Below are positions 14,497 to 56,900 of a stretch of 64,000 nt of DNA, piece by piece (positions within the stretch are counted from its first letter, which is position 1; every line of letters starts with the position of its first letter). A program made the translations under genes and the position numbers. Source of the stretch: Catajapyx aquilonaris. Taxonomy: Eukaryota. The notes beneath the pieces are model-generated. The model saw only the letters and a list, made by a program, of their open reading frames with translations, was not told the origin of the DNA and made no database searches. Where the stretch lies: NCBI GenBank assembly GCA_000934665.2, contig KZ537958.1, positions 124,001 through 188,000 on the forward strand, written 5' to 3'.

Positions 14497-14827
14497 GAGG
14501 GTGTCTCAACTTTTTTTGTCCGAACAGTTATCGGAAAATTTCACGTAGCTGCTACTTTGTAAGCAGCGACTTGCAAACGGTAATTTTTCGAAGGAACGGG
14601 GAATATTCTCTGCAAATCGTAGGTTGAAGTGGCATACGTGCTGCCCTATGAAAATTAAGGGTCAAGCCTGGAAAAGAGAGGGTCACACATGCCAGGGGAT
14701 GTGTGGCCCTCTTTTTCACTATTCCCCATTTCTCCGACAAATCACCGTTTGCAAGTCACTGCTTACAAAGTAGCAGCTACGTGAAATTTTCCGATAACTG
14801 TTCGGACAAAAAAGTTGAAACGCCCTG
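14497..14827. mobile_element. Tc1/mariner-type MITE, copy 1 (more decayed termini)
   Basis: ~105-bp TIRs (GAGGGTGTCTCAACTTTTTTTGTCCGAACAG ... CTGTTCGGACAAAAAAGTTGAAACGCCCTG), TA on the left and CA on the right. Colinear with and highly similar to 22575-22904. No coding capacity. Confidence 0.92.
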
Positions 14828-22499: not shown

Positions 22500-22574
22500 T
22501 GGCAGTAAATTGGACCAATTTATTTCATAATTAATTCGATGTATGTCTACTCTTCTAATAATAATTCATACATA

Positions 22575-22904
22575 CAGGGTGTTTCAACTTTTTTGTCCGA
22601 ACAGTTATCGGAAAATTGCACGTAGCTGCTACTTTGTAAGCAGTGACTTGCAACCGGTGATTTGTCGGAGGAACGGGGAATATTCTCTGCGAATCGTAGG
22701 TTGAAGTGGCATACGTGCTGCCCGCTGAAAATTGAGGGCAAAGCCTGGAAAAAAGAGGGTCACGCATGGCATGGGATGTGTGACCCTCTTTTTCCCCATT
22801 CCCCATTCCTCCGACAAATCACCGGTTACAAGTCACTGCTTACAAAGTAGCAGCTACGTGCAATTTTTCTATATCTGTTCGGACAAAAAAGTTGAAACAC
22901 CCTG
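22575..22904. mobile_element. Tc1/mariner-type MITE, copy 2 (330 bp, intact ends, TA TSD)
   Basis: TA|CAGGGTGTTTCAAC ... GTTGAAACACCCTG|TA; TIRs of ~107 bp (22575-22681 and 22798-22904); internal hairpin at 22747-22795; second copy at 14497-14827. Confidence 0.95.
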
Positions 22905-31900: not shown

Positions 31901-34786
31901 CCCCCCCCCCNCCCCCCCCCAATATTGATTCCGACTAGAAGACAACAATGGGGGAGGTCACAAGGGAAATGGAGAAAGGCACTTGACTTGTGCAGGTTCG
32001 GGAATTTCGCCTTTTGAAACGAGCGATTGAAGCTTTTCAGTCGGGTTGGGATGGGGGAACAACGCTGGGCTAATGCGCTGCTACTGAGGCCGTTTAATCG
32101 GCCTTTGGATAATAGCACAATTCGCATAATCGATACGTGGGAAACCAATACTCGTTCCCTGCCTCTTTTTTGGCTTTTTTTTGTGTGTGTGTGTGCGAAC
32201 CGGCGTGGGGGTGACATTTTCAGTGTTTCTAGTCGTCTGTTTCGGTGAACGTTGCTTTCGAACACTGTGTCGTCTTAAATCTTAGCTGCGATGTGTGTAA
32301 AGAAGTTCATTTTGTGTCGATTTGTCCATATTTTTAAAAAAATTACAAACTGGGCTCATGTATAGTGCACAAGAAAAATGTTCTAATCCAAGACATAGTT
32401 CGCAATGTCCCGGTTCGAATTTTTTTCTAGTCCATACGCAAAATCTGTTAAGCATAGAAATATCAGTCACTGTGCCTCCTGCTAGTCTATTCAGTGCCAT
32501 ACCTATTGTTTCATCACAATGTGCTCCCTCATGTATAGCATCGATAACAAAATGTGGTGTTCGCGATAATCAATTTTGAAAATCCCTCCTGCAGTGATAA
32601 TTTTTGCAGGAAAGTTTTTTTTTTTGCAAAAAAAAAAGTGCTGGTTGTGGTCCCCTCCCGTATCAAATTGAGCGTGTGACGAGGCTGAAATGGGTTTAAA
32701 TTTTTGAGGTCAAAAGGGCCTGGCAATATTGCGGCCTGGCCGGACCAATAGAGGACCTTAAAGTTTTCGCAACAACGGGTTGTTTGCGGCATAAAATATG
32801 GCAGTGTTGTTACCCCATTGACGCCCAACAATAAATTAACACAATTTGTACAGCACTCACATTGTGGTCCGCGTGTCTCTACAGCCTGTGGGCGCAAATC
32901 CATTGCTTTATACATTATGCGCGCAATTAAACAAACCACGCCGACAAACTAGCGCTGTACACGTAGGCCGCGTTGTTAATTTATGTTCTGCTAATTTCCA
33001 AAAATTTGGGTTGCGCAGGTTTAACCCCTGGAAGCACAACAATCGATTGATACAGGAGCACAAAAGTTGGAAAGATAATTTTTGTATAAATGTCTGTGAA
33101 ATTATTTGTACAGTTGGCAATTTTTTTACACATTTATGGGGCGTGAAATTTCCATTTTGCAGATTTGCTTTCAGCGTTAATTAAATATTTTTCAGGAAAC
33201 CAACTCCGGAGGTTTAATTACTGCTGAGCGTCCGGCGAAATCTCATCCGGACTGAAACAATGCAGTTTGCGAGAAGATGGCTAGGGGAGAGAGAGAGAGA
33301 GAAAAAAAAAACAACTTTTAACTTCTCCAGAGAAGCTTCTGCAATTGAAATTAAGCGCCACATTTAATGCTCGATGGGAGAGTAATTAACCGGTTATTGT
33401 TAATTAAAAAAGAAGCCTACTTTGATTGTTGGAGGTTTTATATACGAATGCGTTCGGCTCCTGGTTCTTGCAGGGATCATTCAAAATTTCATTGACTATG
33501 CGTTAGCGCCATTAATAGCGGAAATTGCGCTCTGCTCAGCCAGTCGCGGTGTAAACGGCTGCATGACTTAAAATTATGAGGCCGTGTAATCGGGAGAGCC
33601 CTGGCCTGCTGGCCATTAACCTTCTTTTGTATTGTGGACTAAATATGCTCTGTAATGGCTGCAGCCAGCGCGATTGCTTGCATCTCAGAAAAACACTGCC
33701 TCTTTCGCACCAGAAATTGCTCGTCTTTATATCGACGTAAAAACGTTACATTTTTCGCGCAAAAAAATATGATAAGCCAGTATTGACACCTTGACTTATT
33801 ATGGCTGGCAATGTAATGGGATTACCACACATGCCAACATTCAGCTGACCGGGTTCCATGAAGGGTTTATACTAGGTCATAACTTGGGCTGTGATGTAGA
33901 CTATAAACGGCATAGAATGTAGGTTTTTCTGTATAAATAATGACCCCATTCTATCGGGGATCCGAAATCGTAAACTCATAATGAAGAGTCTCCCTTCTCT
34001 CCTTTATAATGAAACTCTTTTTTTTTGCGAAAGAGAAGCGTCGAAGTAAAGCTGCAGTCTTCGTATTGCTGATGGAAATGAGCGTTTGAATTTCGATAGT
34101 TAAATGGTCTTGAAGAGGGTGTTAAATAGTCGATACGGATCCCATTATATCGTGAATCTTGGGCTATAGTTTTACTCCTAAACAATCTAGTGATTGTTGG
34201 CATATATAGAACTCAGATTCTGCGAAAACCCCATTTGGAATCCTTCTCGATCCAATTTATGCCCTGCGTGTTCCGCACCGTCGTTTTCCTTAATCTTCCA
34301 GGGGGTGGAACATTATACTTTGCATGCTAATTTAGCCCAAAGTGTCGTCCAGATCTGCATTTTTAAAGCAAAAAAAGAGAGAAAAAAATAGGACGATTCC
34401 ATTTGCCGCTTACATTTTATGCGCGAAATGAATCCCTGCTGTCGACCATATATTTTCTTCTAGGCACACTTATCTGACATAATTTATAGACGACATATTG
34501 GATCCTTTTCCCCTCTAAGCAGACGTGAATTAAAATGTCGCTTTTCTTTACTGAATATTAGATTTTGGTTCAGAGAAATTCTAGCAAATACTGCAAGTTA
34601 TATCAGACCGAAGTTCACCGTTTTTCGGCGCATTTCTAGTGCATCCCATTGTTGAGCAGCACTACAAGTACCTGTGAAATTGTAGTCATTTCTTCTTTGG
34701 AAAGGGATTGTATTAACTCATAATTAAGTTATGCTTTCCGCTTGATATGATACATTGATTAACTGATACAGGCTGTAGCCAAAAGA

Positions 34787-34859
<73 letters not shown>
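34787..34859. repeat. (TAT)n microsatellite, ~24 units
   Basis: Uninterrupted TAT run. Confidence 0.98.
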
Positions 34860-37800
34860 GACGAGTCAGGTCACGTTCGTCAGTATTGCGCATCATTGTC
34901 CGTCAATTCGTGTCAAATTTTGAGATGTAACTTCGGGCCGAGTCTGGACTCCTGTCGGGGCCAACAATTCGATCGTTAGGGTTGCAAATGGACTTGATGT
35001 CAAATCCGGCATAAAGTTATGCAGCATTCTGTACGTGTGGCTGAGGGGGACTGGAGTAGGAAGCCCCGACGGAACTTGGAAATGAACTTCCGAACTTGCT
35101 TCCTGCGAGTTCCGGGGAAAACCCCGGATTCGCAGCTGCACACTTCTTTTTTTTTTTTTTTTGAATGGAGAAAGGTCCTTACGTGGTTTGAAGTGAAGCA
35201 AGGTCCCCAAAACCAACTCATTTCTGCGTCTGCTGGTTAAGGACCTGAAACCATCAGGCTTGGATTCTCCAGGGGAGAGCCCCATTCTCGACCCGGATAA
35301 GAGAATAAGCAGGTTTCATCCCCTGCATTTGCTGGGGCGTGATGTCAAAGTCAAATTACAACCAAAGGGCTATTCAGATGGAAATTTTCTTCCCCCGCTC
35401 ACCATCCGGGCCAAACAGGTGAAAGGCGTCCACTAGGGATGGAATGTGACCAAAAAATTATATGGATGTGGTTCTGAGAGAATAGCCACCAATTTGAAGG
35501 GGACATAATGCCGATAATTTCCAGCATATGAATTAGCTCGCATTCTCCGGTTCAGATCAATTCTTTGTAAGTAGCAAAAAAAAAACTATTTTCTGCTTTT
35601 GATGACCCACCCCGGTTGGTCCAACTTTGTACAGCCGTCAGCTACTTTTTAGCTCAGCTGGCATGTCATTTAGCATCATGCGATGTTATAGCAACTCTTG
35701 TTTTTTTTATCTGGTTTCTTGACAAGACCTCCTGCCGACAGCGGTTCTCAGCAGGATGTTGGCGAGTTTCTTCAACTGCCAGTGTGCTTAACGAGGGTGC
35801 AAGAGCCCCTGCTGCTACCTTCATGGCGTAAAGACCACCTTTGTCCTTTTTCATTCGACAAACGAAATCACTAGCGTCTTCCTCAAAAGGAAAATTGCAC
35901 CGCATTTCAGTAACAGGTGACGAGGTATAATAAACGGTCAACATGAAAAGCAAAAAAGAGTTTTCAATAAGGATAGGGTGTTCCATTTTGCACGGGGATG
36001 TTTGTTTTTGGAAGCGTAGAACCTGCGTGCGGTTTGCATGGCTAAGTTTTAATTGAAAATAGAGTAGAGGGTACGCGAAACGCTATTAACGGCAATGCAA
36101 ACAATAATTATATTAACACGGGCGGTCAACCATATTGCGACAAACATGCGGTGTTTCTATTTTTTTGTGTCCTCCACATGGTGTTTCCAAAAACTGTGTT
36201 ATTTACGGTTATTGATATTATGAAGGCGCGGCATTTACCCTATAGGTTTGATAGAAAAGGGAGGTAAAATCGATAAATTAATTTCCGTGAAAGGCACGCT
36301 TCGGAAATCTTATTCCAAAATGCTTATTCTCGTACAGTAGTCAAGATGGAAAACGAACCCAACCCCCTCAGTTTTCAGTCTTCTCTTCTACTCTCGCGTA
36401 TTTGATTACACGTTTTGCAAGTGCTGACGACACTTAATTCAATTAGGTTCTGGGAGAGCAGCGGAAGGCAAACTCACGCAGTTCGTTAGTTTTCCCGAAT
36501 GCAGATGATTAGCAGTAGGCCTACAGTCGGCTGATTAAATTTGAGAAGGATTTAGTTGCACTGCCCCGACCTATATATCCGGGGAAAGAAGAGTGCCCTT
36601 TGAAAATCCCACCGCTGTTGGTCCCATCACGGTAAAATTTCCTTTTGGATTTAGTTCCCAATGCGGACTTGCCCAGGCCAAACCGACTATATGCCCGTGT
36701 AATTTTCTGGAAAAAAGAGTTTTCCACCACTGTCTATAGTTTGCTATACATTCACTAAAAAAATTGATTATCTATTCATTTCTGACGTCTCACCAGAAAT
36801 ATATTCAAAAAAATATTTTAGTTGAACGTCCAACAACAAAATCGGATGATTAATATGGGTTCCTGCCAAACATAGCTTTGGTTACTTCAGCAATTTTTTC
36901 AGTAATTTGTAGAACTGGCTGAAATTTAAATGCGGATGAAAAAACACCAATCATGTACAGTATGCTGAGTGAAAAGCTGGCGGAGAGCTATTTTTCCGAA
37001 TGTACGCTTCGACCATTAGAACAAACCAAAAAAAGAGAAGCTTTCATGGAACTGTTTCCAGAGTATCGGTAACGCTGCGAGCGGGGTTCACAGCAACAGT
37101 TCTTTATCTTCTTTTGTTCCAAAATAAATCTCAGTGGAGAAAAGAGCTTTTATTTTCCGTCATTCTCCTTTTGTCTCGCAAAAAAATACTGGGGGGAGGT
37201 GGATAAAGAAACCTTTTTTTTTTCAAAAAAAAAACAAGTTGAGGTTGTTTCCACCTTATAAGTTCTGTTGCACCTCTTTGATAGAGTACTGCACCTGTTA
37301 AGCTTCGACTTTTATACTGCCAAAAGCGGACTTTTATGCTGTCACCAGGAGAAAAAAACTTCAATTACTGGGCGCGTCTCCAGAAACTTTTTTATTAGAA
37401 AACTCCGCAGTTTGTGTACCCCATATTGTGGTCAGAACTCTTCACATTCCAACGGTGATCGACTTTTAAAGTTTAACATATTAAGTTTGATTTTGAGCTA
37501 CGTTGCGATTTCCTGTTTTCAAACATTTCTTCTTCTTTTTTTTTGATAAAAGACGTTTGTGGTTTTCATATCATTGATAAATCGATCAAATTTTGCCCAA
37601 GAATATGGGAATCCTCCTAAGCCTCTCCATTTTCCCAATCATTCAATTGGGAAGCTGCAGTGGCAGGCAGAGAGCCTCCGGGTGATGAAACATTAATGAG
37701 AGCTATTCCGGCGGTCAATGGCTTGAATTACTGGCGCAAGAGCATTCTTTTGGGCCGGTTGTCTGCCGGAATCCACGTCCCTCGCGTTCCGAAGTCTCCT

Positions 37801-40800
37801 CTGAATTGAAGGTGGAACTCTCTCCGGCGCTGAATGGCTTCCTTTGACGACGGGAATTTCAAGTAGGATGCAAACTTTTATGCCTTTATTGTCATTCCTG
37901 CTAAGGGCGATTTTCCCTCCAGAGGAGCTGGCCACAAACACAGTGCCGGCTTGATATATTCCGGCTGCTAGAAAGGACCCTTTTTATTTTTTTAAAAAAA
38001 AAAGCCACTTTCTATCACTTGACTTTTTCCGTGAAATGTTTTCCGTTTTTCTGTGTCCGACTTGGGCTTTCTTTTGTCAACATGCCTGAACGAACGCCTT
38101 CACTGCATCACCCACTTACTGTCTGAAAGAGGAGTAATTCACTGGCCCCCTTTTTCATTATTCACGAAAAGACTGTCGATTTTGTTTACAATGTCCTTTT
38201 GCTGCAGTTGAATTATTATTTTGCTAATGATCGGCTTGATTGCATTCGTCTGATTGACCATGTCGATTTGAACCGCCTGTGTGTTGTGGACAGGCATCAT
38301 GAGTGTGTACGGAGTGCCATTCAAAAACTCGTCACATGGCCACTTGTCACATTTCCATAACTTACATTCGCAAATCCATTTATTTTGCAAACAAACTTCA
38401 AAGTAAAATGGAAGTGCGTGTCTCTCTACAAGTGTACATATCCAACTTCTTTTTTTTAAAAAAAAGGGATATAACTATGCTAACCGCAATAAATGCGTAC
38501 ATAACTCGTGAAATTCTCAAGTTAGGGTACATTTTATATCCGCGTCATTCTCCGCTAGACAAAACTGTAAGTTAGTTTCAGCAGAACAGATAGAATCATT
38601 GTAACCCAACGCGTTTCCTGCTCTCCTGGTACCTTCCCTGATGCAATTTCACACGTAGCCTGCGTAATTTGATACAGTATTATGCCTACGTTACACATTG
38701 TAACGCAAAGGGGGGTAATGTTATTTCAAACAGCACACGAGTGTGGAAAACCCGCGCAACTCAGGCTAGCCCCGACGGACAAGCTCGGAAGCCATCACGA
38801 AAGCCCTGTTTGCATTTCTGTTTCGGGATAGAATGAGTGAAAAAAATATTCAAAGCTGGTTGGCTCTAAGGGCTCCACCATAGTATTGAACGGCGCCTGC
38901 ACCATAATAATAATAATAATATCATCGCGCTTTGAATGCTGGTCGTTCTTCCCCGACTCAGGAGAGTTTCTACCCCCGCGAATCTTCCTTTCATCTGTCC
39001 CTCCCAAAGCCCTCCCCCATCCCAACACGCTCCCAAACACGAAACTTATGAGTCTCTTACTCCACTTTTCAATAACAAAGGGATCTCCGGGGCCCCTGCG
39101 CGCACAAAGGAGACGGAGAAGAAGAGCAAGGCTTTTCACCACGTCTGCAGGAGTTCCAACCCAAATTAAGTCCCTTTCCTATCATTTTATTCCTCCCCTT
39201 TTGGTACACCCTTATTAAGGCAGGGCATCTGCTCTTTGGGAACTAGAGTAAAACTCAATGGTTGATCTTCACGTCTTTCACGATTATTTTTCAAGGGCTT
39301 ACATGCTGAGAGTCGGCCAGGCGTGGAAAATCTCATCATGAGCACGAACCGCGACCGTTCTGCCTCCTGGCGGAAGCGTCTGTTATTATATACACACGCG
39401 TCGTTGATGCCCACCTCCACAATTGCATCACAGCCGCAATGTAAAGCAGTTATATTTGCAACAATTTTTTTTACATGTCTACAGTATATACTCGTACAAG
39501 GATATTTACCTTCAGTCCTAGCTATATTGCAGACGACAGCCCGGTCTTTGTGAATATCTGGCTCGGTTTCAAACGCGGCGGAGAAACACGCATGATCGAA
39601 CAGCATGATGTACCACGGTGCTTTGTGGGTTGGAAATGAAAACTTGGGGGTCCCAATCTAGAGACAGATTAAAACCGGTGGGGTCGACCAACTCAAACGC
39701 GATTAGGAATTTTCGATTCATTGATTGTAAAGGAATTCGAGGCCACTCATATTTTCCGAGAGATATTACTTCGTATCATGAACCTCCCCCCCTATACAGC
39801 TACTCCGTTCCACAATATAAGATAATGACTGGAGAAATACGGAGAGAAAAAAAAAGTTGCAAGTTGTCCGGGCGAGAGGAAATTAAAGCTTCGTTCTCCT
39901 CATTGTGGCGAAATGACAAGGCGATGGTTGAGCGAGATAATGGCACTAAGTTGAGAGTGGTATCTGGAAGGAACCATCTTCCATGGTCGGGAGCCGAGGA
40001 GGGGGCGAAATGAACTCGTCTAATTACATGATAAGCGAGGACGGATGGCTCTACTTCTTTCTCCATGGATTCTCTAGAACTGCGAATACAAATTCCCACT
40101 ATCACGGCCCACACTTTTTGTGCCCTCCAGAAGTCAGCTACAGGGTAGGAAAAGGGTGGCGGAAACGGGAAGGAATCGCAAATCTCTTTGATGAGCTTAA
40201 TACGGCCCTGGTGCTGGCAGAACAATGAGAATTACTTGGTATCTCGACCTCCAGATTAATTTTTGCGTTTAATGTGTATTGAAGAATGTGCACGTGCGAA
40301 GCGATTAAGTGCTTGATACATAAAATATTCCCGTCACAAAAATGCATTTGTGCCGTCTCTTCCCAAAAGCTGATAACTTTGTATCGAACTTTCATTTGTG
40401 CTGGGGAAAAAAGAATGGCGTTGATGGTTTACGAGTCATGATCTTCTTTCAGCATAGTGTTCCGGGAAGATAAGGTTTCAGAGCCGCAATACATCCCCAG
40501 CCCAAGTGGAAATCGATGACGAATCATCGCTGCAGATGAAAAGTGTTAAATGTCTGTTCCGATGCCGCACTCTCGAGGCGGGAAGCATGGCAGAGAGATA
40601 CGCTAAGCGCACTTATGGAAATTCAGTGTTTTGACCTTAATCACACATCCATACAATCCTACAGACTTGTACCAACCTAGTGTCCGTCCAAGTGGCGTCG
40701 TAATGCCACAAAGAATCTCAGGCTGTGAAGAAGTTATTGCTGTTTTGATCGTCCATCCCACGAGCTGCGGTGGAAACTCCTTGCGATTGGACAAGCCGTC

Positions 40801-43800
40801 ATAAGTGGCCGTTGAGCACCGCCACTTTGGTGCACTTGCGGGGTGTATTGAAAGCCCCTTGCGGTGGCCCTACGCGCCTCTGGATTCTTCATCCGGTTAA
40901 AACTCGCGCAACATGACCACACAGTGAACCAATTAAGGTCAGCTGCTGCAACATGGAAGTGTCACGATCCACGTCAATGATGGACATTTGTCATTATGCT
41001 GCAATATAAAATGGGCCGGTTATTTTGATTGCGTGTAATGATGTTATTGAAACACGCCTGTTTATCCGATATTTGAGCATATATTCGATTATTTACCCGT
41101 AACTGTGCGGGACAGTCATACATAATTTTCATCGACGCAGGGGCAGCGACAAGTACTGCAGCAACGTGATAAACAGAAATTACCACTGATATGATGCTGA
41201 AGTACAGATCCAAACAACAACAGAACCGCTTGAAGGATAATCAGCTTTAGAATATGTATTAATGACCTAGAAGCACGACCCCTTGATGATGTCACGTGAA
41301 GATAAGTCTTTTTTTTGTCCCATTATGCGCATCTGTTGCCTTTCCTTCTAACATTATCTTTTGCCGGATGGTTGAAACGACGTGGGCCATTCCAGGCATT
41401 GATTATTATTAGGGGGAGGCTCTGGCATAATTCTTTGTCCCTCCCGCCTCGTAATTTGGGGAACGGTTCATGTTGTGACGTTCATCTCGACCGTTAATTT
41501 ACTCGGGTTATTGTAGCACCCCCGCAACCTTTGGGTTATATATCACTGAAAATGAGAGCAGCTCTCACAATTCAGATTTTTTTTGCGACTAAAAAATATG
41601 GGGGCTGTGACAATATTTTATATGCCCCATATAACCGTGCGAATAAAATAATATGAAGGTACTAATTTCTTTACAATGTGTATAAATTTGCTGGAATTAT
41701 CTTTGTTGCGCTACTCATTTAATAGTATTGTGAAATTTATTGTAGGAAAAATTGTCATATTATCTGGGTGATTTTGTTATAAGTGATTTTGATTACGCTT
41801 TTATTGCTTGTTATTCATCATGCCGAACGCGCATTGCCCATTACATTAGCGATAATAACTATTCTATTGATCATGCCGCGTTTATTTCGACGTTAGCAGC
41901 AGTGACGTTTGAAAATGAGTGAACATACTGCATTCCGAATTAAATCTCCGCTCAGAGCTGAATGCAAAAATGCGCTGCTGCATTTTGCAGTGGGGGTTGA
42001 AAAAAATACTCTTGTCGTGACAAAGTCGGATTATATTTTGCTACCTGCTGGAAACGGCACTCTATGCGCAATTATTTTTTTATTTGGGAACCAAATGTAT
42101 ATGCTAGAGACCTCACGGGGTGAATTATTTTGAGAAAAATCCCGTGATTATTTTTTCGTCGCTTCATAGGGATGATTAAAACTCTGGTAATTTATGAGCG
42201 CATTCTTCAAGTTTAATTGCGAGGAAGTTATTAAGGATGAATTTTGAAACTCTTAATTCTTTTTAATTGTGTGCAGTTTTCTTCTCCCATTTTAATGAAG
42301 CTTTCCCATAAGTTTACTCCAACAAGTACATTATTAGATCATCAACCATCAAAAAGAAACTTACAGTCAAATTGCCATACTCGATAGTCAAAACTATTTT
42401 CGTTATTTTAATATTCCCCGGATGATTACGCTGCGATTATGTGTGTTCTAATCTATTACATGCAAATAAGAAAACTGCTCAATCATGCTCATAAATTCTG
42501 AGCTCGAGTCAGAGGTATACGCCTACTTATAGGCCTTGTTGTAGGAGGAAAATTAATGGCGATGCATTATATCCGAGGCCAATGTTTGCGATAAGTCTGC
42601 GTTTCGGTGTGACACAATCCGCATTATCAATCTCCAGAAGTGTTCGTGGGAGGAGGAAGAGGATAATTAGTCGCCCTGCCGGTGTTCGTAGGGCATGCGT
42701 GTGCTCCTAAAACACATAATGTACTTGGAAATGTAGATAAGCTCCAGGCACCGTTAAAAAAAACGAAAAAAGAAAGCTTATATCAAACAGGTAAATCAGT
42801 TGTAGTCTGGCAAACAAAGGTTGTTTGCGAGGCGTATGCCACGTGATTATCGAGGAAAACATTTTCCTTATTTTTTTAACGAAGGTTTAAGATTGAATAA
42901 CGGTTGCATGTTATTTTACTCTGTTGAATTGTGTTTAGCAAAATTGTAGTAATATTTTTTTCGTAATTTTTATGACTCCTTATCTGTTTATCGATAACTT
43001 TAAATACCTTTTTTAACAAATCTACATATTTATGACGTATTTCACGTACTCACAGAATTCATTGCTTGACGTGCATAATATCCGCAGACTAACTTTTGCG
43101 ATTTTCGGAACCAAAATTAGCTTCGGTCCAGGTACGGAGCTATCACTCACTTGTCTAATGCTACATCGTATCCTGCAGAGCTCCCTAGTTATTTTCAGAC
43201 CATTTTGAAACCCTCACATATTATATGCAATTTCCTCCAGTTCGTTTACCTGGATATTAGTCTTCCTTTATACCCAACCAAGCCGCATTATTGCTGAAAG
43301 ATTGCTCCTTTGGCACAGGAAGCCTGAATTGACGCCTGGTATCCCCGTCACGTAAAAAAAGGGAGGCAAAGCGAGTTGTTCCCAGAAAGCGAATCGGCGT
43401 GAAACATGACCCAATAAGGCAGAAATAAAGACCCCGAGATCAAACCAGTTACATCCAACGCATTTTGTGCAGATACGCCACATTTTCATCTCCAACCACG
43501 ACTTGTAAGTGGGGCCTTGTGGTACCTCAGACAAAGACAAGAACTAGAAAAAGGCAGCGATAAAAGCTCCCTCCCATTTCCTGGACCTGGTCAGGAACAA
43601 AAATACCCTCCTTCTCCCTTGTTCCTTCTTCCCCCCCTTTTTTTTCTTCTTCCTTCAGGACTTGTCAGGATGTGCAATTTCCGGCACCTGCAAACGAGTT
43701 CTTGACAAGGATGCGACATTGGTCTCGCTCGTTGAGCACCACTCATTCCCTTTTCGGCTGGGGGACAACCAAGACAAGAAGATTAGTCTTTTTTTACGAG

Positions 43801-46751
43801 TCACGCTTGTTTACCGGTGCATGATGGGAGAATCGAGCGGGGGTCTCTCTTTTTTTAACGGGGATTCCCCGACTCACACTGCTGGGCTTGTCCGTTTCCT
43901 CTTGCAGGCTCATTCACCACTTAGGCGGCCATTATTCGCTCATTTTTCCTTCCCTGCGTTTAAGGTGGAAATGTCTGGAGGGGGGAAAAAACAAGGGTCT
44001 TCAAGAGGAGTGCTTTGGATGGAGTGCACTCAAAATCGGAGACATTAACAAGGCTGCTGGAAAACATGAGCTACTTTTTAGTGTTTACAAAGAGAGGGAA
44101 TGAAAATTGAAGAGCTGTGAGGTCGTATTTCAAATTATTTTCTGTTCAAACCTGCTATCTTAAGACGTATGGTGTAGAAAACAATTTTGAAACTTGTGGT
44201 CTGGAAAAAAGCATTTCATAACATACTGTTCCAGTAATTGATAACAGAAATGTTGCCACTAGCTAACCATTGCTATATACCAAAATCATATTCGACTTAT
44301 AGACAACTACTTATTTCCTTATACTGTACCTGTATATGCGGTTTTGAATGCATATTTTGTAACACCTGTAACCTGTCACATTTGACCAGAACTGACTATA
44401 ATAATTTTTGAATAGTGTGGGAAAGAGCAAATCGCAAATTCTGCTCCCCCATACCATTCTGGAGATCGACAGTGCAGTTAAAACCTGTGAATTTGGACAC
44501 CTGATTGAGATTGCCACTTGTTACCGGGTCCGAATTGGTTAACTTTTGAGGCTTTGCCGTAATTGAATTCATTTCACAACAATGAGCAACCATCGGAGCG
44601 AGCAGAGAATCGTGTGGGAAAGAGCTAGAATTCATACGAGTATTATAACACCGTCGGACCTTACCTGTATTTACGCATGAGTGAGTCTTACGGCCTGTAC
44701 TAAAATTGACGAAACATTTATTTTCGATAGGAACTCACTGGTTGTTGTTGATAAATAGTTTCATTAATGATCACATCTAATATATCTTCATAATAGTAAT
44801 TTTAGAACTTTTGTTTCCGCGGGAAAAACATGAAACATTTTTTCCGAAACCATAAGCAGAACAAGTCCAGAAGCAACGTATAATGACATCAACAAATCGA
44901 ACAAGCCAGATAAGGGCCAGCCTTCCGCCAGCCTTCCTCCCACTCCAGGCCTCAGGGATTTGTGTTTCTGAAAACCAAAAATAACCTCAGAAAATTGCGC
45001 ACTCTCTGTATCCAAGCAACCCCCGGAATGACCGGAAATATAATAATAGACTATTATACTTTCAGAAATATACTGCAGCTTTGCATCAGGTCAGAAAGGT
45101 TTCGACACTCAGTAATTTTACTGTACGCTATAAGCCTCTACAAAATTGAACTAAATCCACCAATCACACCAATATTTAACCCCCGCTTAAAATAGGCTAA
45201 AACATGTCTGTCTCTTCTCAAAACAAGTGCACATTTTTGCATGACTGAACTCCGTCATCTCCACTGGTCCAACTGGGGAAATGACCAGACGTGCGTCTAC
45301 ATACAACCCCGGGGTTTCCAAAGGCTCTCTTTTCCGGGCCCAAAGTCTAGGCTTCTGAGTGCCTCCGAGTGAGGTTTGAACTCTAATGTGGCCGCCGTGT
45401 GTATATATCAGAGCGAGTGAGAACCCACCTCAATTTTGTGGTTCCTAAAATCCACTTGCAAGTGACTTGACATTCATATCACTTGGGGGTCCCTGGCTTG
45501 AAGGTTCTATGTAAAAAGCTGGCAGAATTTGGTGCTGCAGTTAAGTCTTTTTGAGGACCCAAGGCACGAGTTTATTTCGGCGCGGGTGAACGGTTTCTAA
45601 TGAGACGGAGCAAAATCGGGCATATACGAGGGGAATAAAATCGGTTTTGGTCGGCGGATTGTCGGAAGGGAATCAGAGGACGCCCCCGGGCAGGTTCTCA
45701 GGAAACAGGATTAGGCTTCGTTACTTAGGTGTTGTCATGAATAAGGAAACCGCAGCCCCCGGACTCCGCCTCCTCGCATATTAATGAACCTACGTGAAGT
45801 GAGACCCATTGCCTAATTGCCTCCTGCATATCTGCAGCTGAATGGTGCTCCCATGTAATTGGCCTTTTCATTGTATGACCTTTAGCGTCGAATTTTATTT
45901 GGGACTGTTGAACAGTACCTAACTTCTCAAAAAATATTGAGCCATACACGGTAGGCGTTCAAAAAAAGCATTTCTTTTGTACCGCACTGTACTCACCGAT
46001 CTTATTGGTGCAGCAGAGCCCCCCACCCTCTGCTCAATCAATCAGATATAGGGTGTCTGGTGTGGAGTGGATCACTTTTTGAGAAGTTATGCTGTGGGTA
46101 CTGTACTTACAGTATTTGTTCTACTTATCCCTTATAAGTGTACAACTGTGTGTATGATACGTATGATGATCGTAGTTACCATTAATATTCACCAGTGCAA
46201 AATTATGCACACTTGTCATCAAAATGCATTTCAGTGCAACCTGCATGAAACGGACCGGAATTTTCTGCACAAAAATGTGCAATAACACTCTGGCCATGTT
46301 TGAAGGGTAGGAACAGACCTACTTTGGGGACCGATGTAGCTCGGTTTATGTTGCTTTCAGAATACAATCCCCGAATGGACGCTAGGACTATATGAGAGAG
46401 GGGGGTACCTCCACCGTACAGTATAATGGAAGCGTGACTAGCTCTCTCTCTCTCCCATTCCCAATCCTGTTTCTGACGTGTATTCAATGAGCCAGGCTCC
46501 CCCGTTCCATTAATTCGCGCTCTCATCCGCGCGGCTTTTAACGATCTATTCGTCCCGCGGTATAAAAGTTTGACGTAGTGCACCGGGTTCCCTGTCCTGA
46601 CACGACTTTAATGATCTCGTGATATCCGAGGCCAAGAATAATTATTATTATCACCGCGGCGGACCTTGTCACCGGTATGTCGGGAGAGGAAAAGTAGCTG
46701 TAGGTTTCATGATGTTGTGAAGTTTATTTATGATCGTTCTTTTCGTTGCAG

Positions 46752-46807
46752 GTAAGACACTGGTGGCTTGTACGGTGTGATGTGCTGAAATCGGGGAATT
46801 GGTGACG
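46752..46807 (+). other. Candidate recursive splice site (ratchet point) with 56-nt cryptic exon, or a short non-coding exon
   Basis: tgatcgttcttttcgttgcag|GTAAGA at 46751/46752: the acceptor is immediately followed by a donor. A second donor ACG|GTAGGT lies at 46807/46808. Confidence 0.55.
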
Positions 46808-49800
46808 GTAGGTGCAAACCTCCCACTAAAAATCGTGAATATTAAATGGGAAAACTAGCCCAAACAATTTGCGTCACGTCGGTCGTCTTCAAAGCGAAAA
46901 TCGGCTTTGTTAGTCCCCAAAATAATGCTACGAGCTTTACCTGCACCCTCTAATCCCTCATATATCATACCCCATTAATGACTAACGACCATGTATCCCA
47001 GTGTTGTCTGACATAACAAAACCATAATGCCAGTAGGTCTGCTGCCTAAATAGGGCGGTAAACATAGCAATGTGGATTACGCGTGTTTACTTGGGCACCC
47101 GGATCCAACACATTGTATAACTGACCTCTCTCCAAGCTCCAGCCGGGGGTTTCCCTCTGGAAAAAAAAGCACCCCCAACCACTCCCACTTTTAATCCCAC
47201 AGGATTCGTTGATTTACTAGTAATCAATTATCTGGCATGAGACGCAGCAGGGGATTGTGACGCGCCAAAGTTTCACATATAGTTTGGGCACAGTTTCAGG
47301 CAATCTCTGGAGTTATTCCTGCTTATGACCCACAGAGGGGGTTTAGAGTAATGGTGGGACATTATAGAGTGTGTGGACAGTTTGCCAATCAATTAGCGCG
47401 TTACGGCGCATTATTGTATTGTGGCCGAATGCTTACTGAAATTACCGGCAAGGGTCGTCTGCTAGGTAATAATCATCATTCCAAATTATCTTCGGGGATA
47501 ATGATTACAAAGTGTGGCGCAAATCGGGGTTAAAGATGATTAATCGACGCTGGAGGATAATTTCCATGCGCCAGGCCTTATTACGTGCAAAGTCTAGTCT
47601 CGTGTCGCCTTCGAGCCTGACCAACACTAAGTTAGCACTAAGACGACAAATTCGGTTAGGGAAATAGCGAGTAACTTACAAAGTTTGCTGGCCCTTGCCG
47701 GAGATAATTCTGTGCATGTGTGGTTTGAGATAATCCAAAGCAAATATTTTACTTTGCATTATGTGTACGTTATAGTGTAGGCAGAAAATGCTGACTTGCT
47801 GGCTCATTATTAATGTTTAGGACTTAATGGCTACTTATAAGTGTAAAACCGACAAAATTTTGCGTATACGACACAATTTTTCAGGGTTATATCATGGTCA
47901 AAAATGCAAGGCTCTTGTGCTGGGTAATGATGTTGTGTTTATAAACTCGACGGGGACATTTGCAAATCAATCGATTGGCTTGACCTGGTCATGGACACCT
48001 TGATGACCGTCCTTCGGATGTTACTGCTGAAATTGCTTAATTGTGTTGAAATATTCATGTGCATGGATGGGTTCCACCCGCCTGCGTTGGATAGATGGCA
48101 GCAATTATTTGCAGCAGCTTCCCCCCCCTCCCGCTCTATTTAATCGAGAGCTGTCCATCTGCAGGTCCTAAACTGGGGTCCCCAAGCCATTTTAGGCCCA
48201 CCCCCATTTTGGGAAAGAGCCTAATAAGGGCCCCCTTATTGATAGATGCCGCCGTCTAATTGGCTGTCACCTTCCGGGAGCCATGCCTATCTATTATGTC
48301 AAAAACCCGGGAGGAGAGTGAATTTCGTTCCCTCATTATTTACACTGATTGGACAACCTGAACGATGAGGAAAGAAGCCAGAATTCGATTTGACGAAGGC
48401 TCAATTAGTTGGAAACTGCTATCAGATAAGTGCCCGTTTTGCCAGGAAAAGAATAGGGTTTTTTTTCGCTCCCTAGAAAGTCGTTTTATTGGCACAGATG
48501 TAAGTATAGGAAATGCGAGTCTTATCGAGTTAGTACAGAGAAATATTAAATTGCCGATACTGGCCTGCTCGGATAGTTCGGAGCAATTTATTACCCTGGG
48601 AGATTTCGCAGAGGATTAATTCTCCGTTCAAGCTCGACTTACCCTTCCTCCTCTTTTAATTGCTAAATATCACTCCATATCCCGTTGCAAAACGGCGACG
48701 TATAATTTTCCTAAATGAGTTATTGTAAGTGCTGAAGCACGCATGATGCATCGTGGTAATTTACTAATGGCTCATTTTTATACTGATATCTTAAGCAACT
48801 ACCGTTGTTATCACTCTGAACATCAGACTCGTAATAACTGATGATCATCATTTGTTCTATGTGTATGACATTGATATAAATGCTACATGTGGTAATATGC
48901 TGTTGATAATCTGCTGCTATTGTGACTTTCATTTTATATAATATAGTAAGCAATCAAATATATTTATCAAAAGCAATTGTCCATTTTAAGTGTTAATTTA
49001 AAATTTTCTTATTCCTCTTTATTAATTATGTTTCTTTTTGTTTTAGTTTGTTTTATACCCCAATTAGGCCTTTTAGGAGACATAAGCTCCAGGGAATACA
49101 CGATTATTATTATTCACATATAAATTCATTTTTTCAAAACATCTGCAAAACAACAGTACTTTGGGTATATTTTCAGCTCGAAATTGTTATTAATTAAGAG
49201 ACAATATTTTTAAATACTGTACAGCCACGACACGACCGGGTCTCGTTTCTCGACCTCCCAACCGCAACCAACTATCACTAGTCCGGGAATCCCCCGCAAA
49301 ACTATCACCCGCCATTGTTACCCCCTACAATACCCCCCCGTTTAAAATATGCAAATCCGATTGTAGCGGTTTGACTTTGCGTATAGGACGTGGCTCGCTC
49401 AGTCCCAAGCTCAGGAACAGCAACAACAACGACAAAAAAAGAGAGTCCGAATCGGGTTCTAGTACTGGCCTATAAATAATTGGGCTGCCTGCTTTAACAA
49501 ATCAGTGGCGGTTCTGGCGCTTGGGCATCCTTCTCACGCCCCTGCGAATTGATCGTCTCCGTCATTTGAACCAGTCAGATCGATTCACCAGACCCCGAGC
49601 GGCGATTGCTTTTTTCCCCTGGCCTTATTCGGGGCCCCTCCCAATGTCAACTCCTTTTAGCTTCAGCCAGGGGGACTGCATGACGTGAAACATGAAGCCC
49701 ACCGCCAAAATTTGCCCTCCCCGGAACATGATTGAGTTTTTTGAGGCAAAAAGAAAAGAGTGGGTGTGAGCAAAAACCGTGATTTGGTAATGGAGTCGTG

Positions 49801-50498
49801 TTGTCAACTGGTGTTTCTTTGGAGCGGAAAAACATCCGAGCAGCGTCACTGCGCCAAAATGGTTCAAAGTACCGAGCACGTATTTGACACTTTTCTTTCT
49901 CACCGCCTGGCTATTTATTTTGTCTCGCTTTTTCGACGACAGGTCAGTGGCAGCTAGCATCCATTATTAATGTCGCCAGCTGTAAAATGGTCGAACCGCA
50001 CCCTTCATCAATAGCCATTTTTTTTCTCTAGAGAGAAGAGGAATTCAAAAGCGTTTTTTTTTTTTTTTTGATAAATTGAGTTGCATTCTTTGCGTCCAGG
50101 CCCGTGACTTTTGTTTCGTGCATTTTTGGAATTCGAGTCCTGGACGATAAATCAATTCTTGTTTGATGAAGATGGATTTGTGCAGAAATTGAATTTGCGG
50201 ACGGGGAATTTCCGGAATGCATCACAACACGCCACCTCCACGTAAAAGCATGCATGATCAGAGAGAGAGCTCTACAGTATTCAGACTATATACCATGTGG
50301 GGGTTAGCCAGGCTGTCCTCATTCCTTACCACTTACAGTTAGTACAGTATAGCCGGATGTCAAAGTTAAGTGAACAAATTGGGTCAAAATCGTGTAAAGT
50401 GCAATTGGAAGTGATCATTTGGCAAAATTGTAGCTAGCCATAATATGCCAATATCCACACGTTTCCAATATTGCAATGTTTCATTTTCAAGCGAGTGT

Positions 50499-50543
50499 GC
50501 TCGAATGTGCGAGCACCCGCTCGAACGTGCGAGCCACCCGCTC
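50499..50543. repeat. ~20-bp tandem duplication of a small hairpin unit
   Basis: GCTCGAATGTGCGAGCACCC / GCTCGAACGTGCGAGCCACCC / GCTC; each unit holds a GCTCG...CGAGC stem. Confidence 0.7.
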
Positions 50544-51183
50544 ACTCGTAATCCTCCAGATATATCCAGCATCTCCAGGCCTGTATCTCTGGCAATGGGC
50601 ATATTGCCGGGTGCAGGCAGCCAGAGAAATGAGTTGTCCAGAGTGAAGTGCTGCGGGGATGTTCCAGACCCGGCTGCAGTCGTATCGTAGCCTCGGTCCA
50701 CTCGCCTCTCCCTCCCCTGGTAATTCCCTTGACAGGGAGGAAAGTCAGAGGATAGGCTCCTTTTCTGCGGGCAGCCCTAGAGCCCGCTGGAAGTTTCCAT
50801 TGGGATCCGCCATGTTAACACGTCGCCAGGCGCTGTCAAGCGCCGCTTTTGTCTTGCAGCTCCCCCATTAATTAAAAGCTCGGTTCCATAATTAGAGCGG
50901 CTTGTAAAGGGTTAGCAGCCCGGCGGTGGGGCGCGAATTAGCAAGGAAGGCTGCGGGAAGACCATTACTCTTCATCACTCCGATACCGTATTGTCATCGG
51001 CCTAATTAAGACCCGGGCTGGCTGGCTGGCGGGGGTATCCTCACGACGACGACAACGACGCTTCCCAACACTGGGGGGAAAGTAAAACGAGTAAACTCAG
51101 GGAAGAATAAGGCTCAGGATGGATTCGGGTGGAGGAAATGACGACGGGGACGCGGAGGCAATCTCTGGTTTGATTTACATATA

Positions 51184-51260
51184 GAGAACCTCAGAGAAAA
51201 CATTGCCGTACAAGAAACTCGTCTTTCATGTACAGGGATCGAACCTAGTACCTCATAGGT
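51184..51260 (-). mobile_element. Possible decayed SINE fragment
   Basis: Minus strand has B-box GGTTCGATCCC followed ~30 nt later by GTTTTCTCTGAGGTTCTC, resembling a SINE body motif. No A-box or TSD found. Confidence 0.3.
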
Positions 51261-53682
51261 TGGATGTTATGGCGTGGAATGACTTGCTGTACTTTAAAAC
51301 AATATATTATTTCCTAATGTTGGTGCGTTCCACGAATTCCCAAAATATTGCATACAGTAATCCCCGTTGATAAAATATGCCAAACCCTACAAGTGTATTC
51401 AGTAGGACAATTACAATGAGATGGCCCACCGATTTACCACGTAATACTATTCTTCACTCATAGATGGCGCACATTCCCTCTGCACACTCATGCCACCTTC
51501 AGATTGTGCGCGAGATGGCTATACTTTGAGATCGGACAAACATCCGACGGAGAGAATAAGCCTGTTAGGAGAAAGATGTAATAAGCTAACATGCATAAAA
51601 TTTCGTTAAAACAGACCTCTGCCAGTGGATCTCATCGCTTTAGAGACATCTGTTATACTTTCGTCGCCTTAAGTCTTTTGAAGCGTTTCCTGCTCCTTTG
51701 AACTGTCATATGTTAAAGAACCATCTTTCTTAATTCGTGAGGGGGAAAGTTGGGGCGAAGAAGAAGAGTCGCTTTTACTTTGCCCGCTACTTTACTTAAG
51801 TGACAGCAATAATGACAAAGTGGTACCTGTGCGGCGCGGCGCAGTTGATTTTTAAACATCCCTTGGCATTGCTCCTTAGTGTGAAAAATTACCTGCCCCG
51901 AACACTTCACGGTACATGAATACCCTTTTTGTTCACGGTATTAGGTTTTTTTCTTTTTTCCATCACACACCAGTCTCTCCCTGCTGCTGCCTGTTGGGGG
52001 CAACAATAATTGTTTAAAGGGTTATGTCACAGCATGCATCACAAAAACATTGCTTCATGAGAGCAGATTATACACAGCATGCAGTCGAATTATGAGGTTT
52101 ATCGCATCCTCGTACCGGCTGGGTTTTATAGCAGCAGGTGATCGGTCGTTGAAAATAACTATCGAACATGCCGGGTGTGAAAGTGACCAGGAACTTTGTG
52201 AGTCTAAAACACCCCATACAAATTATTTAATAGCATATATGCATGTAGGAAATGCTTAATTATTTTTCGTTCAACAATTAATATATACAGTACTTCAGGA
52301 CTATTGAAAACACGTTTGCGTGACAAATATGCAGGTACAAAAAAAATTAATCCTACAGCTAAATCGAAATAAAACAAGTTAGTTTCGAACGCTTCACTGT
52401 TCAACTGTTTCGATAAATTTTGCTCGAAAGCGGCGTACACCACATTAAAAGCTGTTGAACATTTTTGTTATTCAGTCACACGGGGCATGAAAATCCCACC
52501 CAGAAATTTGAAAGCGCGTGTTTGAAATTGAATTGTTGTAAATGAGTCCAGCTCCCGAACAAACCGGTCACGTTTTTAAGAGTCAGAAAGGACATTTTTT
52601 TTAACTGTGCCAACCACATAATTTTGCAATTTTGGAAAAGTACAGGAGACAAGTGCTTTGCTTGGAGATAAACACGGGCAAGCGGTGGCCGTACGATAGC
52701 CGCACGTATCTGACCTGTTTAACCAAAATGCGCTACAAAAAGCTGTAAAAACTAGAGCTCTTTATTTGCCAGACTTATCTCTGAGTGTACCCGGCTTTTG
52801 TTGAATAATAATTGCACAAGTGGGATTGAGGTTCAGATCCGATTTTTACTCGCATGTTGTGTTTTTGTCCCGGATTTAAAAGAGGGCCAGCCCTCCGGAT
52901 TACTTCTATCGCTAGGTGCTGGGCAACACAGCACCTTTTTATATATAGCCAGATTCAGAGAAAGTAGTGTTTAGTCGCAATGCGATGCATTAGCTGGCGG
53001 AATTCCTGGAACAATTTCATCATTGTCAGACCTCAACTGACGCCGCAGCTAAAGGTTGAAAGCGGCGGCGGGCCATTGTGGCTTTGCATCAGTGATGGCA
53101 GCAGCCGAAATCCATTTTCCTGTGATGTCACCTGTGCCCATAGCCTGGGCCCTGTCACATACTGCGTCAACAAAATGCTCCGTGTGCAGCACCAGGTCCC
53201 CCGGACGCATGCAATGGATGCATGGCGCCCCGGACCCTGCGAAACACTGTGCATGTAGCCTTTGTTTCGCTGTTTGAATTGCCTGAAAATAAGGGCCTAA
53301 GCGCTCTGTGCCAAATACGTCAAGCGTGAGCACGCTTGTAAAGCCCCCCAATGTGGATGGACAACAATCACGGGTAGGGGTAGGGGGGGGGGGGGGGCCC
53401 ACACCGCCGGTACGCCCTGACCGTGACAAACCAAGAGGAAAAATGGCAAAGGTCGAACTTGATTGAGTGGCTTCTATACACTGTCAATCGAAATCCACCC
53501 CCCTCCATCCACCTCCAAAAAAAAGCTGCCAGTTTGTTTACATTTTTGTTCGCCCCCTATTAATATGGTGTAGTCCACACTTTTTTAATCTCTTTGGACA
53601 ACACACTACTGGCAATGCATAAACTGCTCACACAGGACGGTGGTTATCAACCATGTTCCTGCGGATCCTAGCAGTATCAGGA

Positions 53683-53928
53683 ACTGCTATTTTAAAAATA
53701 ACAGTGGTTTGAGTCCAAAATCACCTACCAGTAGTAGCAAGTACTGATCACTGTTATTTTTAAAATAACGGTGATTCGAGTCAAAAATCACCTACCAGTA
53801 GTAGCAAGTACTGATCACGGTTATTTTTAAAATAACAGTGATTCGAGTCAAAAATCACGTACTGCCAGTAGCAGCTACAGATCACAGCTACTTTCCAATG
53901 TAGCCGTGATAATGGGCCAAAAATCGCC
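53683..53928. repeat. 67-bp tandem repeat, ~3.7 copies, with a palindrome in each unit
   Basis: Units start at 53683, 53750, 53817 and 53884. Consensus is approximately ACTGTTATTTTTAAAATAACAGTGATTCGAGTCAAAAATCACCTACCAGTAGTAGCAAGTACTGATC. Confidence 0.92.
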
Positions 53929-56900
53929 GTTTTTATTAGAAGCAACTTTAATCAGTGTCACCAGAAGGCTTCTACCTGTAGGCGTTGTAGGTAATATTAC
54001 TGCAGGCGTTTCGCTAAAAACGGGAAGATAATTGCTGATAGTATACGCTTGGCGAAATCAATTTGAGACAGGTTGTAGAATAAGGTGAAGGTTGTCTCCG
54101 GGAGCTGGATTCATCAGAGTTGGGGAGGGGAGGCCTTTTCGGAGAAATTTAGTGAAAGGGGGGTCGTCGCTTTCCCTTCGGCTGAATTTGGAGAGAGACG
54201 AGAGCTTCCTTTCCACCAGTCAGACTCTAATTTGGACTTTGCAGTTTCTCGGTGACACGTAGAGTTTAGTCTGAAACAAACTTTGTCGAGACAGGCTCCC
54301 GAATTTAATTGACACTCGACTCCTTGGGAAACAAATGGAAAGAGAGCTGCAGATCGGCATCGAAAACGTGAGATACACTGGGAGCTTCCTTCAATATGAC
54401 GCCTTTTCAAAGGATTATTCTCAAAAGTGGGGCAATGCAAGTTCAGTGTTAATTATCACAGGCATTGTGTATAACTCGGAAAATCCTGCCAATTCATAAA
54501 ATAATAGAGTATTGAGTGAAATACTGTAAAGTGTGAGGTTCTGCGTGTAATTAATAATTAAGTTAGTTATATGATTCTCTCCTACTAGAAACTCACTATG
54601 ATGATAATAATCAGCCTGGGGGGTTATGCACGGTATTGTACTCTCTCATCTCTCAATTTGAATTTTAAAGTGTAACCTATACAGGAAAACTTGCTCTCAG
54701 GAAGTGCCACCCTCAGTAGGAACACTACCGTGTTTTGTGGTATCAGACAAAAGATGGGTCTGAATGCAGCTCACGAGGATAATGAACATCCTGCCCTTTA
54801 TGCTCATCGCTTAACTTTCAATACCCATTGTTACACAGGAAGTTTACACGTACAGGTTTCCAGAGCTAAGCCGATTATTTAATTAATTTAAGAGTCTCCT
54901 TGATCAGGTGTAGTCGTTACGACCCATTGCATTTTCGCCTCCAGGGTCGGTCTGGCGTTGAGAAAAACATTGAACTGTTTTTTTTGCGTTGAATCATCTC
55001 GGAGACTTTAATGTGCTCAATAATGTTGTCCTTTATAGCCAGTTATATTAATAACACTGTCGTACCAAAAGCACACGAAGTAAAAGTTGCGTCGTCCTTA
55101 TCTGAACAGAGCTAATATAGAAGGCAATAATACCACACCGACTATGCCAATCAAATTCCTCTGAAGGGATCTGCATCAATCAAATCCGCACGCGAATTCT
55201 GGTCATGATGGCTCGAGGAAATAAGACGGTTATCCCCATAGGTCAAATGCAATCATACATCACGGCACGGTGCACACGGAACTGGGTCGCAGGTCGCGGC
55301 CCCTGGATGAGATATCTTCCAAAGCAAATGAAGACCCCCAGAAATAGCCAGGCACGGTATCACGTGAACCTCGCAATTAATTTTAAAGCGCATAACTCAG
55401 TAAGCAAGTATTAAAAATAGCACAAAACTTTTTATCATCCAGTGCGATTAGCCAGGTGTGTAGTCTATGCAGGTTAGTAGGGACTATCATTTAATACAGT
55501 ATGTAGACAATTTGCGTAAATTGTATAGTTTCGCACATTAAACATTTCACGTCTTAATAATTACCTCACACAACCCTATCACCCCCAAACTAATGGCAGG
55601 TCAGCACTAAAAGCACAGGCTTCTGGCATGCGAAGGGTTCATTTTCAGGACAGCAACAAATGAGTTGTCCAAACTCGCCCCAACCTATTTTTTTCCCCCA
55701 TCCGATTATTACATACACGTATGGTCTAATTTAGTACAAGACAGTACTTGGCGCGATACAGTATCTTATCGGGCCTTGGTAAACAGCTCGGGCCATTTTT
55801 CCCGCATTAGGGCAGCGGTAAATCATCCCCTTTTATCTAGCAGCGAAAATGGCTTCGTGCTCGACAGTGCCCCAAACACTTTCGGTACCCGCTAATGCAA
55901 GTCTATCGAGCAAGGTTTTTAGCCGGGGTAAAACTCCATCCTAAAGAAGCTGCTGCCGCCATTGCCTCCATTTTTCTCCTGCAAAGCAGCTCTGGCCAAC
56001 CGGAACGGAATCAACAAAGCCATTGATCAGGTTCAAGCTCCCCGAGTTTTTCTCTGGCCCTAGACAGCCATGCATTTGAAGAATCTGAGAAAATAATAGC
56101 CAGAATTCCCACAACAATGCAGTGTTCGGTAGTGGTGGCCAACCTGCTCTTTTGCATCTATCCACACTTCATAATTAGTATTCCAAAAAAAAGAGAGCTG
56201 TCAATATTGGATTAACAGCATTTCTCGCATGGCAGAAGTCGACTCTTTGAGCTCGCACTCTCAGCCACGGTTAATTAACGAGCTTGTTTTGTCAAATTAC
56301 GAGCCTGTTTTTTAGCTTTACAAGTGGCGCGAAAACAAGGCTCGGTTTAAATTGCGTGCCTGGGAATTTTTATTTGATGCTATTTGTTAAAATTTTGGAC
56401 AGTATTATCTAACATAATTTATGGCTGAACATGTATTACTGTCGTCCAACTTGAAGCTGGTTTGCTTGTGTGCTGTCACATTTTTGCATGCAATATTTAG
56501 TTACAGTTGGCCAAAATTTTGTGTTTTGGCGGATTACACGATATCAAAGCTGTGGTTGGATATTGATTGCCTAAAAGAGGTATAGGATTGGAGCGGATAG
56601 TGAGTGGCGCCCGGAGCTTCCAAAGTTGTAAGAGCAATTTGCAGGGAGGCCCTTTTCCCACGACCTAAAGGCAGAAGAGGAGCCCACAGGAATCAAGCAA
56701 TTTAACTGCAGGCCTCCCTTGGACCATTGGCATTCGGCGGTAGATCCGGACCACTCCGGCTCGCCATTTCCGTCCCTGCCTTTTTCTCCACCAACGACGG
56801 AGCGGGAATCGTTTAGACGGCTGCCGGAACTGCCAATGCATTACAAGCCAGCAACCAGGCCAGAGGTGAAAACGCGCGCATCTTTCAAGCCTCCACCGAA

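Follow-up and report, generated by a model that had tools for sequence, protein, structure and literature searches.

The candidate site

Does a splice acceptor fused directly to a splice donor, far from any recognizable exon, mark a place where a very long intron is removed in steps, or is it a juxtaposition of the sort that non-coding DNA will throw up unaided? We address this question for a 64,000-nucleotide stretch of contig KZ537958.1 (positions 124,001 to 188,000; referred to here, at its full length, as the window), in which a pyrimidine-rich tract on the + strand runs into an AG that is immediately followed by the donor GTAAGA, with a further donor a short distance downstream. A preliminary description of the window had proposed that this is a recursive-splicing ratchet point with a cryptic exon, and that the window may be one giant + strand intron. 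We consider it somewhat more probable, at about 0.55, that the AG|GTAAGA and the downstream GTAGGT are a chance or unused juxtaposition of splice-like motifs in single-copy, exon-free, non-coding DNA, in which case the motif would do nothing or would act at most as an occasional decoy, should the + strand be transcribed.

By direct reading and by script, the + strand sequence is TCGTTCTTTTCGTTGCAG|GTAAGA, with the AG at 46750-46751 and the GT at 46752-46753, so that the AG|GT junction occupies 46750-46753. The donor GTAAGA (46752-46757) would be regenerated after splicing to 46752, and the second donor, ACG|GTAGGT (46808-46813, with its GT at 46808-46809), lies 56 nt past the first GT. The preliminary description had given these coordinates and this spacing exactly, and it had further called the site the strongest AG|GT on either strand, with which our survey agrees: AGGT occurs 183 times on the + strand and 192 times on the - strand, the form YAG|GTRAG occurs once on each, and only the + strand copy has a pyrimidine-rich tract (12/16 upstream pyrimidines, as compared to 8/16 at the - strand site, 44667). 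The only other candidate on the + strand, at 18979 (TCTTTTCAG|GTAATT), is poor.

The pyrimidine tract and acceptor context (46732-46749) comprise GATCGTTCTTTTCGTT at positions -20 to -5, followed by GC before the AG. Twelve of the 16 positions are pyrimidines, nine of these being T, and the longest unbroken pyrimidine run is 8; the purines are a G at -7 and three more. TT stands at -6/-5 (46746-46747), with G at -4 and C at -3. In its genomic context CAG|GTAAGA (46749-46757) matches CAG|GTAAGT at 8/9 positions, and GTAAGA and GTAGGT, judged by reading, each agree with the intronic consensus at 5/6 positions. The putative branch-point zone (-36 to -21, 46716-46731) holds A's at -32, -31, -26 and -22 (46720, 46721, 46726 and 46730), two of them within TTTAT; they fall in the zone published for flies and would be plausible branch points, and a strong CTAAT-like branch site is not present in 46716-46731. 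The candidate cryptic exon between the two donors (46752-46807) is 56 nt long, is not a multiple of 3 and has stops in all three frames, features that a non-coding 56-mer of any kind would probably share. No RNA structure was found at 46690-46830 (fold z-score 0.10).

Expectation by chance

How often a site of this quality arises unselected was estimated from 300 simulated windows under each of two models, first-order and third-order Markov, both built from the window itself. YAG|GTRAG preceded by at least 12/16 pyrimidines appeared at 0.10-0.12 per strand, the probability of at least one on either strand being 0.20, and where GTAAG was required the rate was 0.03-0.09 per strand. Because a core this good occurs in 10-20% of simulated windows, the core alone is not beyond chance, and we count this rate in favor of an unused motif. 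It agrees with the published background: for the complementary strands of large introns, Shepard et al. 2009 (PMC2773006) tabulate strings resembling ratchet points (RP-like strings) at 0.07-0.12 for most species and 0 for mosquito, in a unit that is apparently per 100 kb. The background frequency of such non-functional AG|GT sites, among them decoys or pseudo-exons of long introns and intergenic DNA, matches what the simulations lead one to expect for the window. Moreover, the candidate is the best among 375 AGGT sites on two strands, and therefore after-the-fact selection applies to it.

The second donor is a different matter. For donors of the form G|GTRRGT, 1.0% of positions have one at a distance of 25-100 nt downstream, and the share is 4.9% for GTRRGT and 8.8% for GTRAG or GTAGGT; since this rate is only 1-9%, the second donor adds something beyond the core, which argues against a purely fortuitous origin. 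Few random AG|GT sites have, as the candidate does, TT at -6/-5 together with both a GTAAG donor and another donor 56 nt on. The full two-donor arrangement would be expected in roughly 1/50 to 1/500 windows, a figure that applies to an arrangement defined after being seen.

Coding content and copy number of the surrounding DNA

A ratchet point requires an intron around it, and the surroundings were accordingly searched for exons. The window has a GC content of 0.433, a CpG observed/expected ratio of 0.84 and three single N's. When the 300 longest of the 364 stop-to-stop open reading frames (ORFs) of at least 60 aa were compared with Pfam, no family scored above its curated cut-off, and the two sub-threshold matches (E ~0.005) are about at chance level for 300 queries. 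Period-3 power never rose above the shuffled maximum in the window except at two (TAT)n arrays. The window has no detected tRNA genes, and no Rfam family reached its gathering score, the sole match at E<=0.5 being a meaningless microRNA match of 30 bits, versus a gathering score of 110. The statement that no coding exon is seen in the window is thus supported as far as the Pfam, period-3, tRNA and Rfam scans extend. Around the site itself, none of eight ORF translations (0/8) was found by exact look-up in a protein collection, and a 21-mer spanning the site had no matches in a metagenome scan.

DNA contigs of two sequencing runs that may be the source of the assembly, compared over 36800-56799, confirm the assembly and place the candidate in a single-copy contig (46079-51474) at a depth of ~32, so that the site is not a member of a repeat family. 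Short repeats flank the single-copy DNA, with depths (in 667-nt bins) of 268 at 45.87-46.10 kb, 124 at 47.5-48.1 kb and up to 2080 at 50.8-52.1 kb. Contigs break where the depth changes, rising from ~30 to ~2000 at 51430-51580 and to 268 and 124 at the other two places, and we take these to be dispersed repeats from families whose copy numbers range from high to moderate. A further sequencing run, of unknown kind, gave only 18-24-nt matches to 36800-56799, none of them near 46.7 kb.

Is the window a + strand intron?

A window that is exon-free as far as these scans extend is just as compatible with a gene desert, or with an intron of the - strand, as with a + strand intron. Two indirect signs of + strand transcription were considered. 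The + strand has more T than A (z 3.7; 23/32 bins) and more G than C (z 2.6; 22/32 bins). The sense strands of fly introns, as known from short introns, have T>A but C>G, and we rejected strand composition as a proxy for transcription, the T>A skew agreeing with fly introns and the G>C skew opposing them. The two skews are also distributed differently along the window, the T excess being strongest from ~32 kb on and the G excess in the first ~26 kb. The second sign, a depletion of poly(A) signals on the + strand (41 AATAAA versus 71 TTTATT), was likewise rejected, as the asymmetry is no outlier among A/T hexamers, which as a whole number 1217 versus 1668. The poly(A)-signal asymmetry is thus no independent sign of + strand transcription, and we count this too in favor of an unused motif.

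Comparison with the ratchet points of flies

Ratchet points in flies are (Y)nNCAG|GTAAG sites within long introns (Duff et al., 10.1101/006163; Shepard et al. 2009, PMC2773006), and each depends on a cryptic recursive-splice exon (RS-exon) of ~50 nt with its own donor (Joseph & Lai 2021, PMC8605326). What the preliminary description had given as the established architecture, such sites in long introns together with short cryptic exons, therefore stands in the published fly work.

In view of this architecture, the candidate might be actively used as an intronic ratchet point, the host being a long + strand intron that comprises the window, or the part of it around 46.7 kb. Judged from the sequence, this is a tentative explanation and on balance a doubtful one. 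Were it correct, an upstream exon would first be joined to the AG at 46751, the segment 46752-46807 and its GTAGGT serving to define a cryptic RS-exon; splicing would next proceed from the GTAAGA donor re-formed at 46752; and the cryptic exon would be removed together with the remaining intron, such that the mRNA would keep nothing from this place.

Several published features of fly sites are present. The candidate has the acceptor|donor core YAG|GTRAG, the TT at -6/-5 that is present in 196/197 fly ratchet points (Duff et al., 10.1101/006163), and a downstream donor that would define an exon of about the described length (56 nt as compared to ~50 nt). It has C at -3, and its A's at -32 to -22, which are no more than plausible as branch points, lie where the branch points of fly recursive lariats mostly fall (-36 to -21, with A in 79%; Duff et al., 10.1101/006163). 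With Ubx-RP and the ratchet points of kuz, Bx and luna it shares the AG|GT juxtaposition, the TT and the donor ~50 nt downstream. In both, moreover, the surroundings are exon-free and the "exon" is out of frame and non-coding; that of the candidate is stopped in every frame, which agrees with the description of cryptic RS-exons.

A comparison with table S1 of Pai et al. (539 candidate sites in 379 introns), made by string counts and by a hand count of rows in part 1 of 11, places the candidate more closely. TTGCAG|GT (TTGCAGGT) has 128 occurrences in the table, CGTTGCAGGT has 20 and CGTTGCAGGTAAG has 6. The whole 17-mer, TTTTCGTTGCAGGTAAG, is found once, so that one fly site in the catalogue agrees with the TTGCAG|GTAAG core of the candidate at 17 consecutive nt. 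AGGTAAG occurs 92 times, the next base being T in 37, C in 43, G in 5 and A in 7. By these counts the candidate core is common among fly sites, and an A at +6, as it has, is seen in a minority. Fly ratchet points are described as having a prominent pyrimidine tract that exceeds those of ordinary acceptors in strength, and here the candidate compares less well. Pyrimidines at -20 to -5, counted by hand in the 47 high-confidence rows of part 1, number 16 in five sites, 15 in 17, 14 in 14, 13 in 10 and 12 in one, and the 12/16 of the candidate therefore equals the lowest of the 47. The candidate thus differs from the Drosophila sites in its +6 base and in a tract weaker than that of nearly all high-confidence sites. 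The medium-confidence sites of part 8, however, have far weaker motifs than the candidate, with scores of 0.82-0.845.

For vertebrates, Shepard et al. 2009 (PMC2773006) report RP-like sites without enrichment, which would speak against a ratchet point if the genome were of that type. The CpG observed/expected ratio of 0.84 probably speaks against a vertebrate genome, and the composition suggests an invertebrate whose genome would measure a few hundred Mb. The exon definition by a downstream donor and the competition between two donors that are proposed for the candidate may, by analogy, resemble vertebrate splicing through RS-exons. Recursive splicing via RS-exons is said to have been described in vertebrates by Sibley and co-workers in 2015.

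Is the site used?

Several considerations weigh against an unused motif. The candidate shows all of the hard motif features that have been described for ratchet points in flies; its TTGCAG|GT and even its 17-mer recur in the fly table, parts of which hold sites with far weaker motifs; and the donor at +56 fits the ~50-nt RS-exon model although it would be met at only 1-9% of positions by chance. The T>A skew of the + strand is that of fly intron sense strands. In a long intron of an invertebrate, read on the + strand, real and chance sites would be equally likely; and if the species is an invertebrate and a prior of ~1/4 is allowed for a + strand long intron, we would expect a motif of this class to be real in about half of cases. 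The placement of the site in single-copy DNA and the lack of a detected exon across 64 kb are both as a ratchet point would have it, and recursive sites are present in most fly introns of more than 40 kb (Pai et al. 2018, PMC6110457).

We nevertheless favor a chance or unused juxtaposition. The tract, with its 12/16 pyrimidines and its G at -7, matches the lowest of the hand-counted fly sites, and only 7/92 of the AGGTAAG occurrences continue with A at +6. The donor at a fly ratchet point usually exceeds that of its RS-exon in strength (Joseph & Lai 2021, PMC8605326), whereas the regenerated donor here is not clearly the stronger (5/6 each). The G>C skew is opposite to that of fly intron sense strands. 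Duff et al. (10.1101/006163) found 130 introns, 11-133 kb in length, to hold 197 ratchet points, with segments averaging 18 kb, and the mean segment in Pai et al. 2018 (PMC6110457) is 9.1 kb; with such segments a single recursive intron filling all 64 kb should hold several sites, and only one good site is present. Recursion is also rare: of the fly introns that exceed the shortest recursive intron in length, only 6% were recursive (Duff et al., 10.1101/006163). In our estimation the odds of recursive use are raised by the second donor, and lowered both by the weakness of the tract and by the A at +6. The more specific proposal of a functional ratchet point that has a cryptic RS-exon of 56 nt, in an intron of more than 60 kb of a little-studied and probably invertebrate species, with a tract weaker than those of fly sites and a position beside the CpG-densest patch of the window, is one that we would advance only with considerable doubt. 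If true, it would take recursive splicing beyond Drosophila and widen the spread of motif strengths that such splicing can accommodate.

More generally, a ratchet-point call made from the motif in a single 64-kb window has odds that are roughly even or worse, given a core that chance supplies in 10-20% of such windows. Were the call true, it would add a further recursive splice site of a well-described kind, modestly useful as a case from a species other than Drosophila melanogaster and for marking a long + strand intron.

The CpG-dense patch and the possibility of an ordinary exon

The CpG-densest patch of the window (46301-46900) lies upstream of the candidate site and overlaps it. The 400-nt interval from 46501 contains 31 CpG, at an observed/expected ratio of 1.46, the highest of all such intervals (mean 15.6, sd 4.6), and the candidate sits at the downstream edge of these CpG-densest 400-600 nt. 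This raises the alternative that the site is part of an ordinary small + strand transcript, which we regard as quite unlikely. It might be a promoter-proximal first exon, with GTATGT (46675), GTAAGA (46752) or GTAGGT (46808) as its donor, or it might be a 56-nt expressed exon, whether cassette, poison or untranslated-region, that merely begins with GTAAGA (an "expressed RS-exon").

The support from the locus for such an exon consists of the patch itself, a TATA-like string within it (TATAAAAG at 46561-46568) and a donor-like CCG|GTATGT (GT at 46675), which lies 76 nt upstream of the AG and would allow a 76-nt intron (46675-46751) of ordinary short-intron length. The TATA-like string, however, is no evidence, since the window has 8 copies of TATAAAA on the + strand and 19 on the - strand. 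No initiator-like TCAGT stands near the expected start, the nearest being at 46231, and there is no local excess of donor-like sites. A 134-aa - strand ORF (46206-46607) lies under the CpG patch; it has no Pfam match, and a homologue search returned four candidates, none at E<=0.01, which does not favor an ordinary transcript at this place.

The expressed form has precedents. The Ubx microexons mI and mII (51 nt) begin, like the candidate segment, with GTAAGA straight after the acceptor (Duff et al., 10.1101/006163; Joseph & Lai 2021, PMC8605326). The Ubx microexons are, however, coding, frame-preserving and ultraconserved, whereas the 56-nt segment has stops in all frames and cannot code. Expressed RS-exons are moreover few in flies, with fewer than 50 as compared to more than 500 intronic ratchet points (Joseph & Lai 2021, PMC8605326), such that intronic sites are over ten times as numerous.

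Other features of the window

Fifteen runs of 8-15 G or C lie within 524-58420, as compared to ~0.6 expected from base composition; examples are found at 1715-1727, 9703-9715, 10816-10862, 31896-31920 and 53383-53397, and many are preceded by GA-rich sequence. The three N's (5737, 10851 and 31911) each fall within or next to a run of this sort, a placement suggesting that the assembly is uncertain at homopolymers. Two perfect (TAT)n arrays, at 804-871 (22.7 copies) and 34787-34859 (24.3 copies), are the source of the only period-3 peaks in the window. At 53683-53883 a 67-nt unit is repeated three times in tandem, the units being 79-91% identical to the first copy and each beginning with the palindrome-like ACTGTTATTTTTAAAATAACAGT. 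Finally, an element of ~330 nt is present in two copies (14512-14833 and 22569-22907) that are 91% identical over 300 nt; its inverted arms of ~94-114 nt are 94-95% complementary, giving it the look of a miniature inverted-repeat transposable element.

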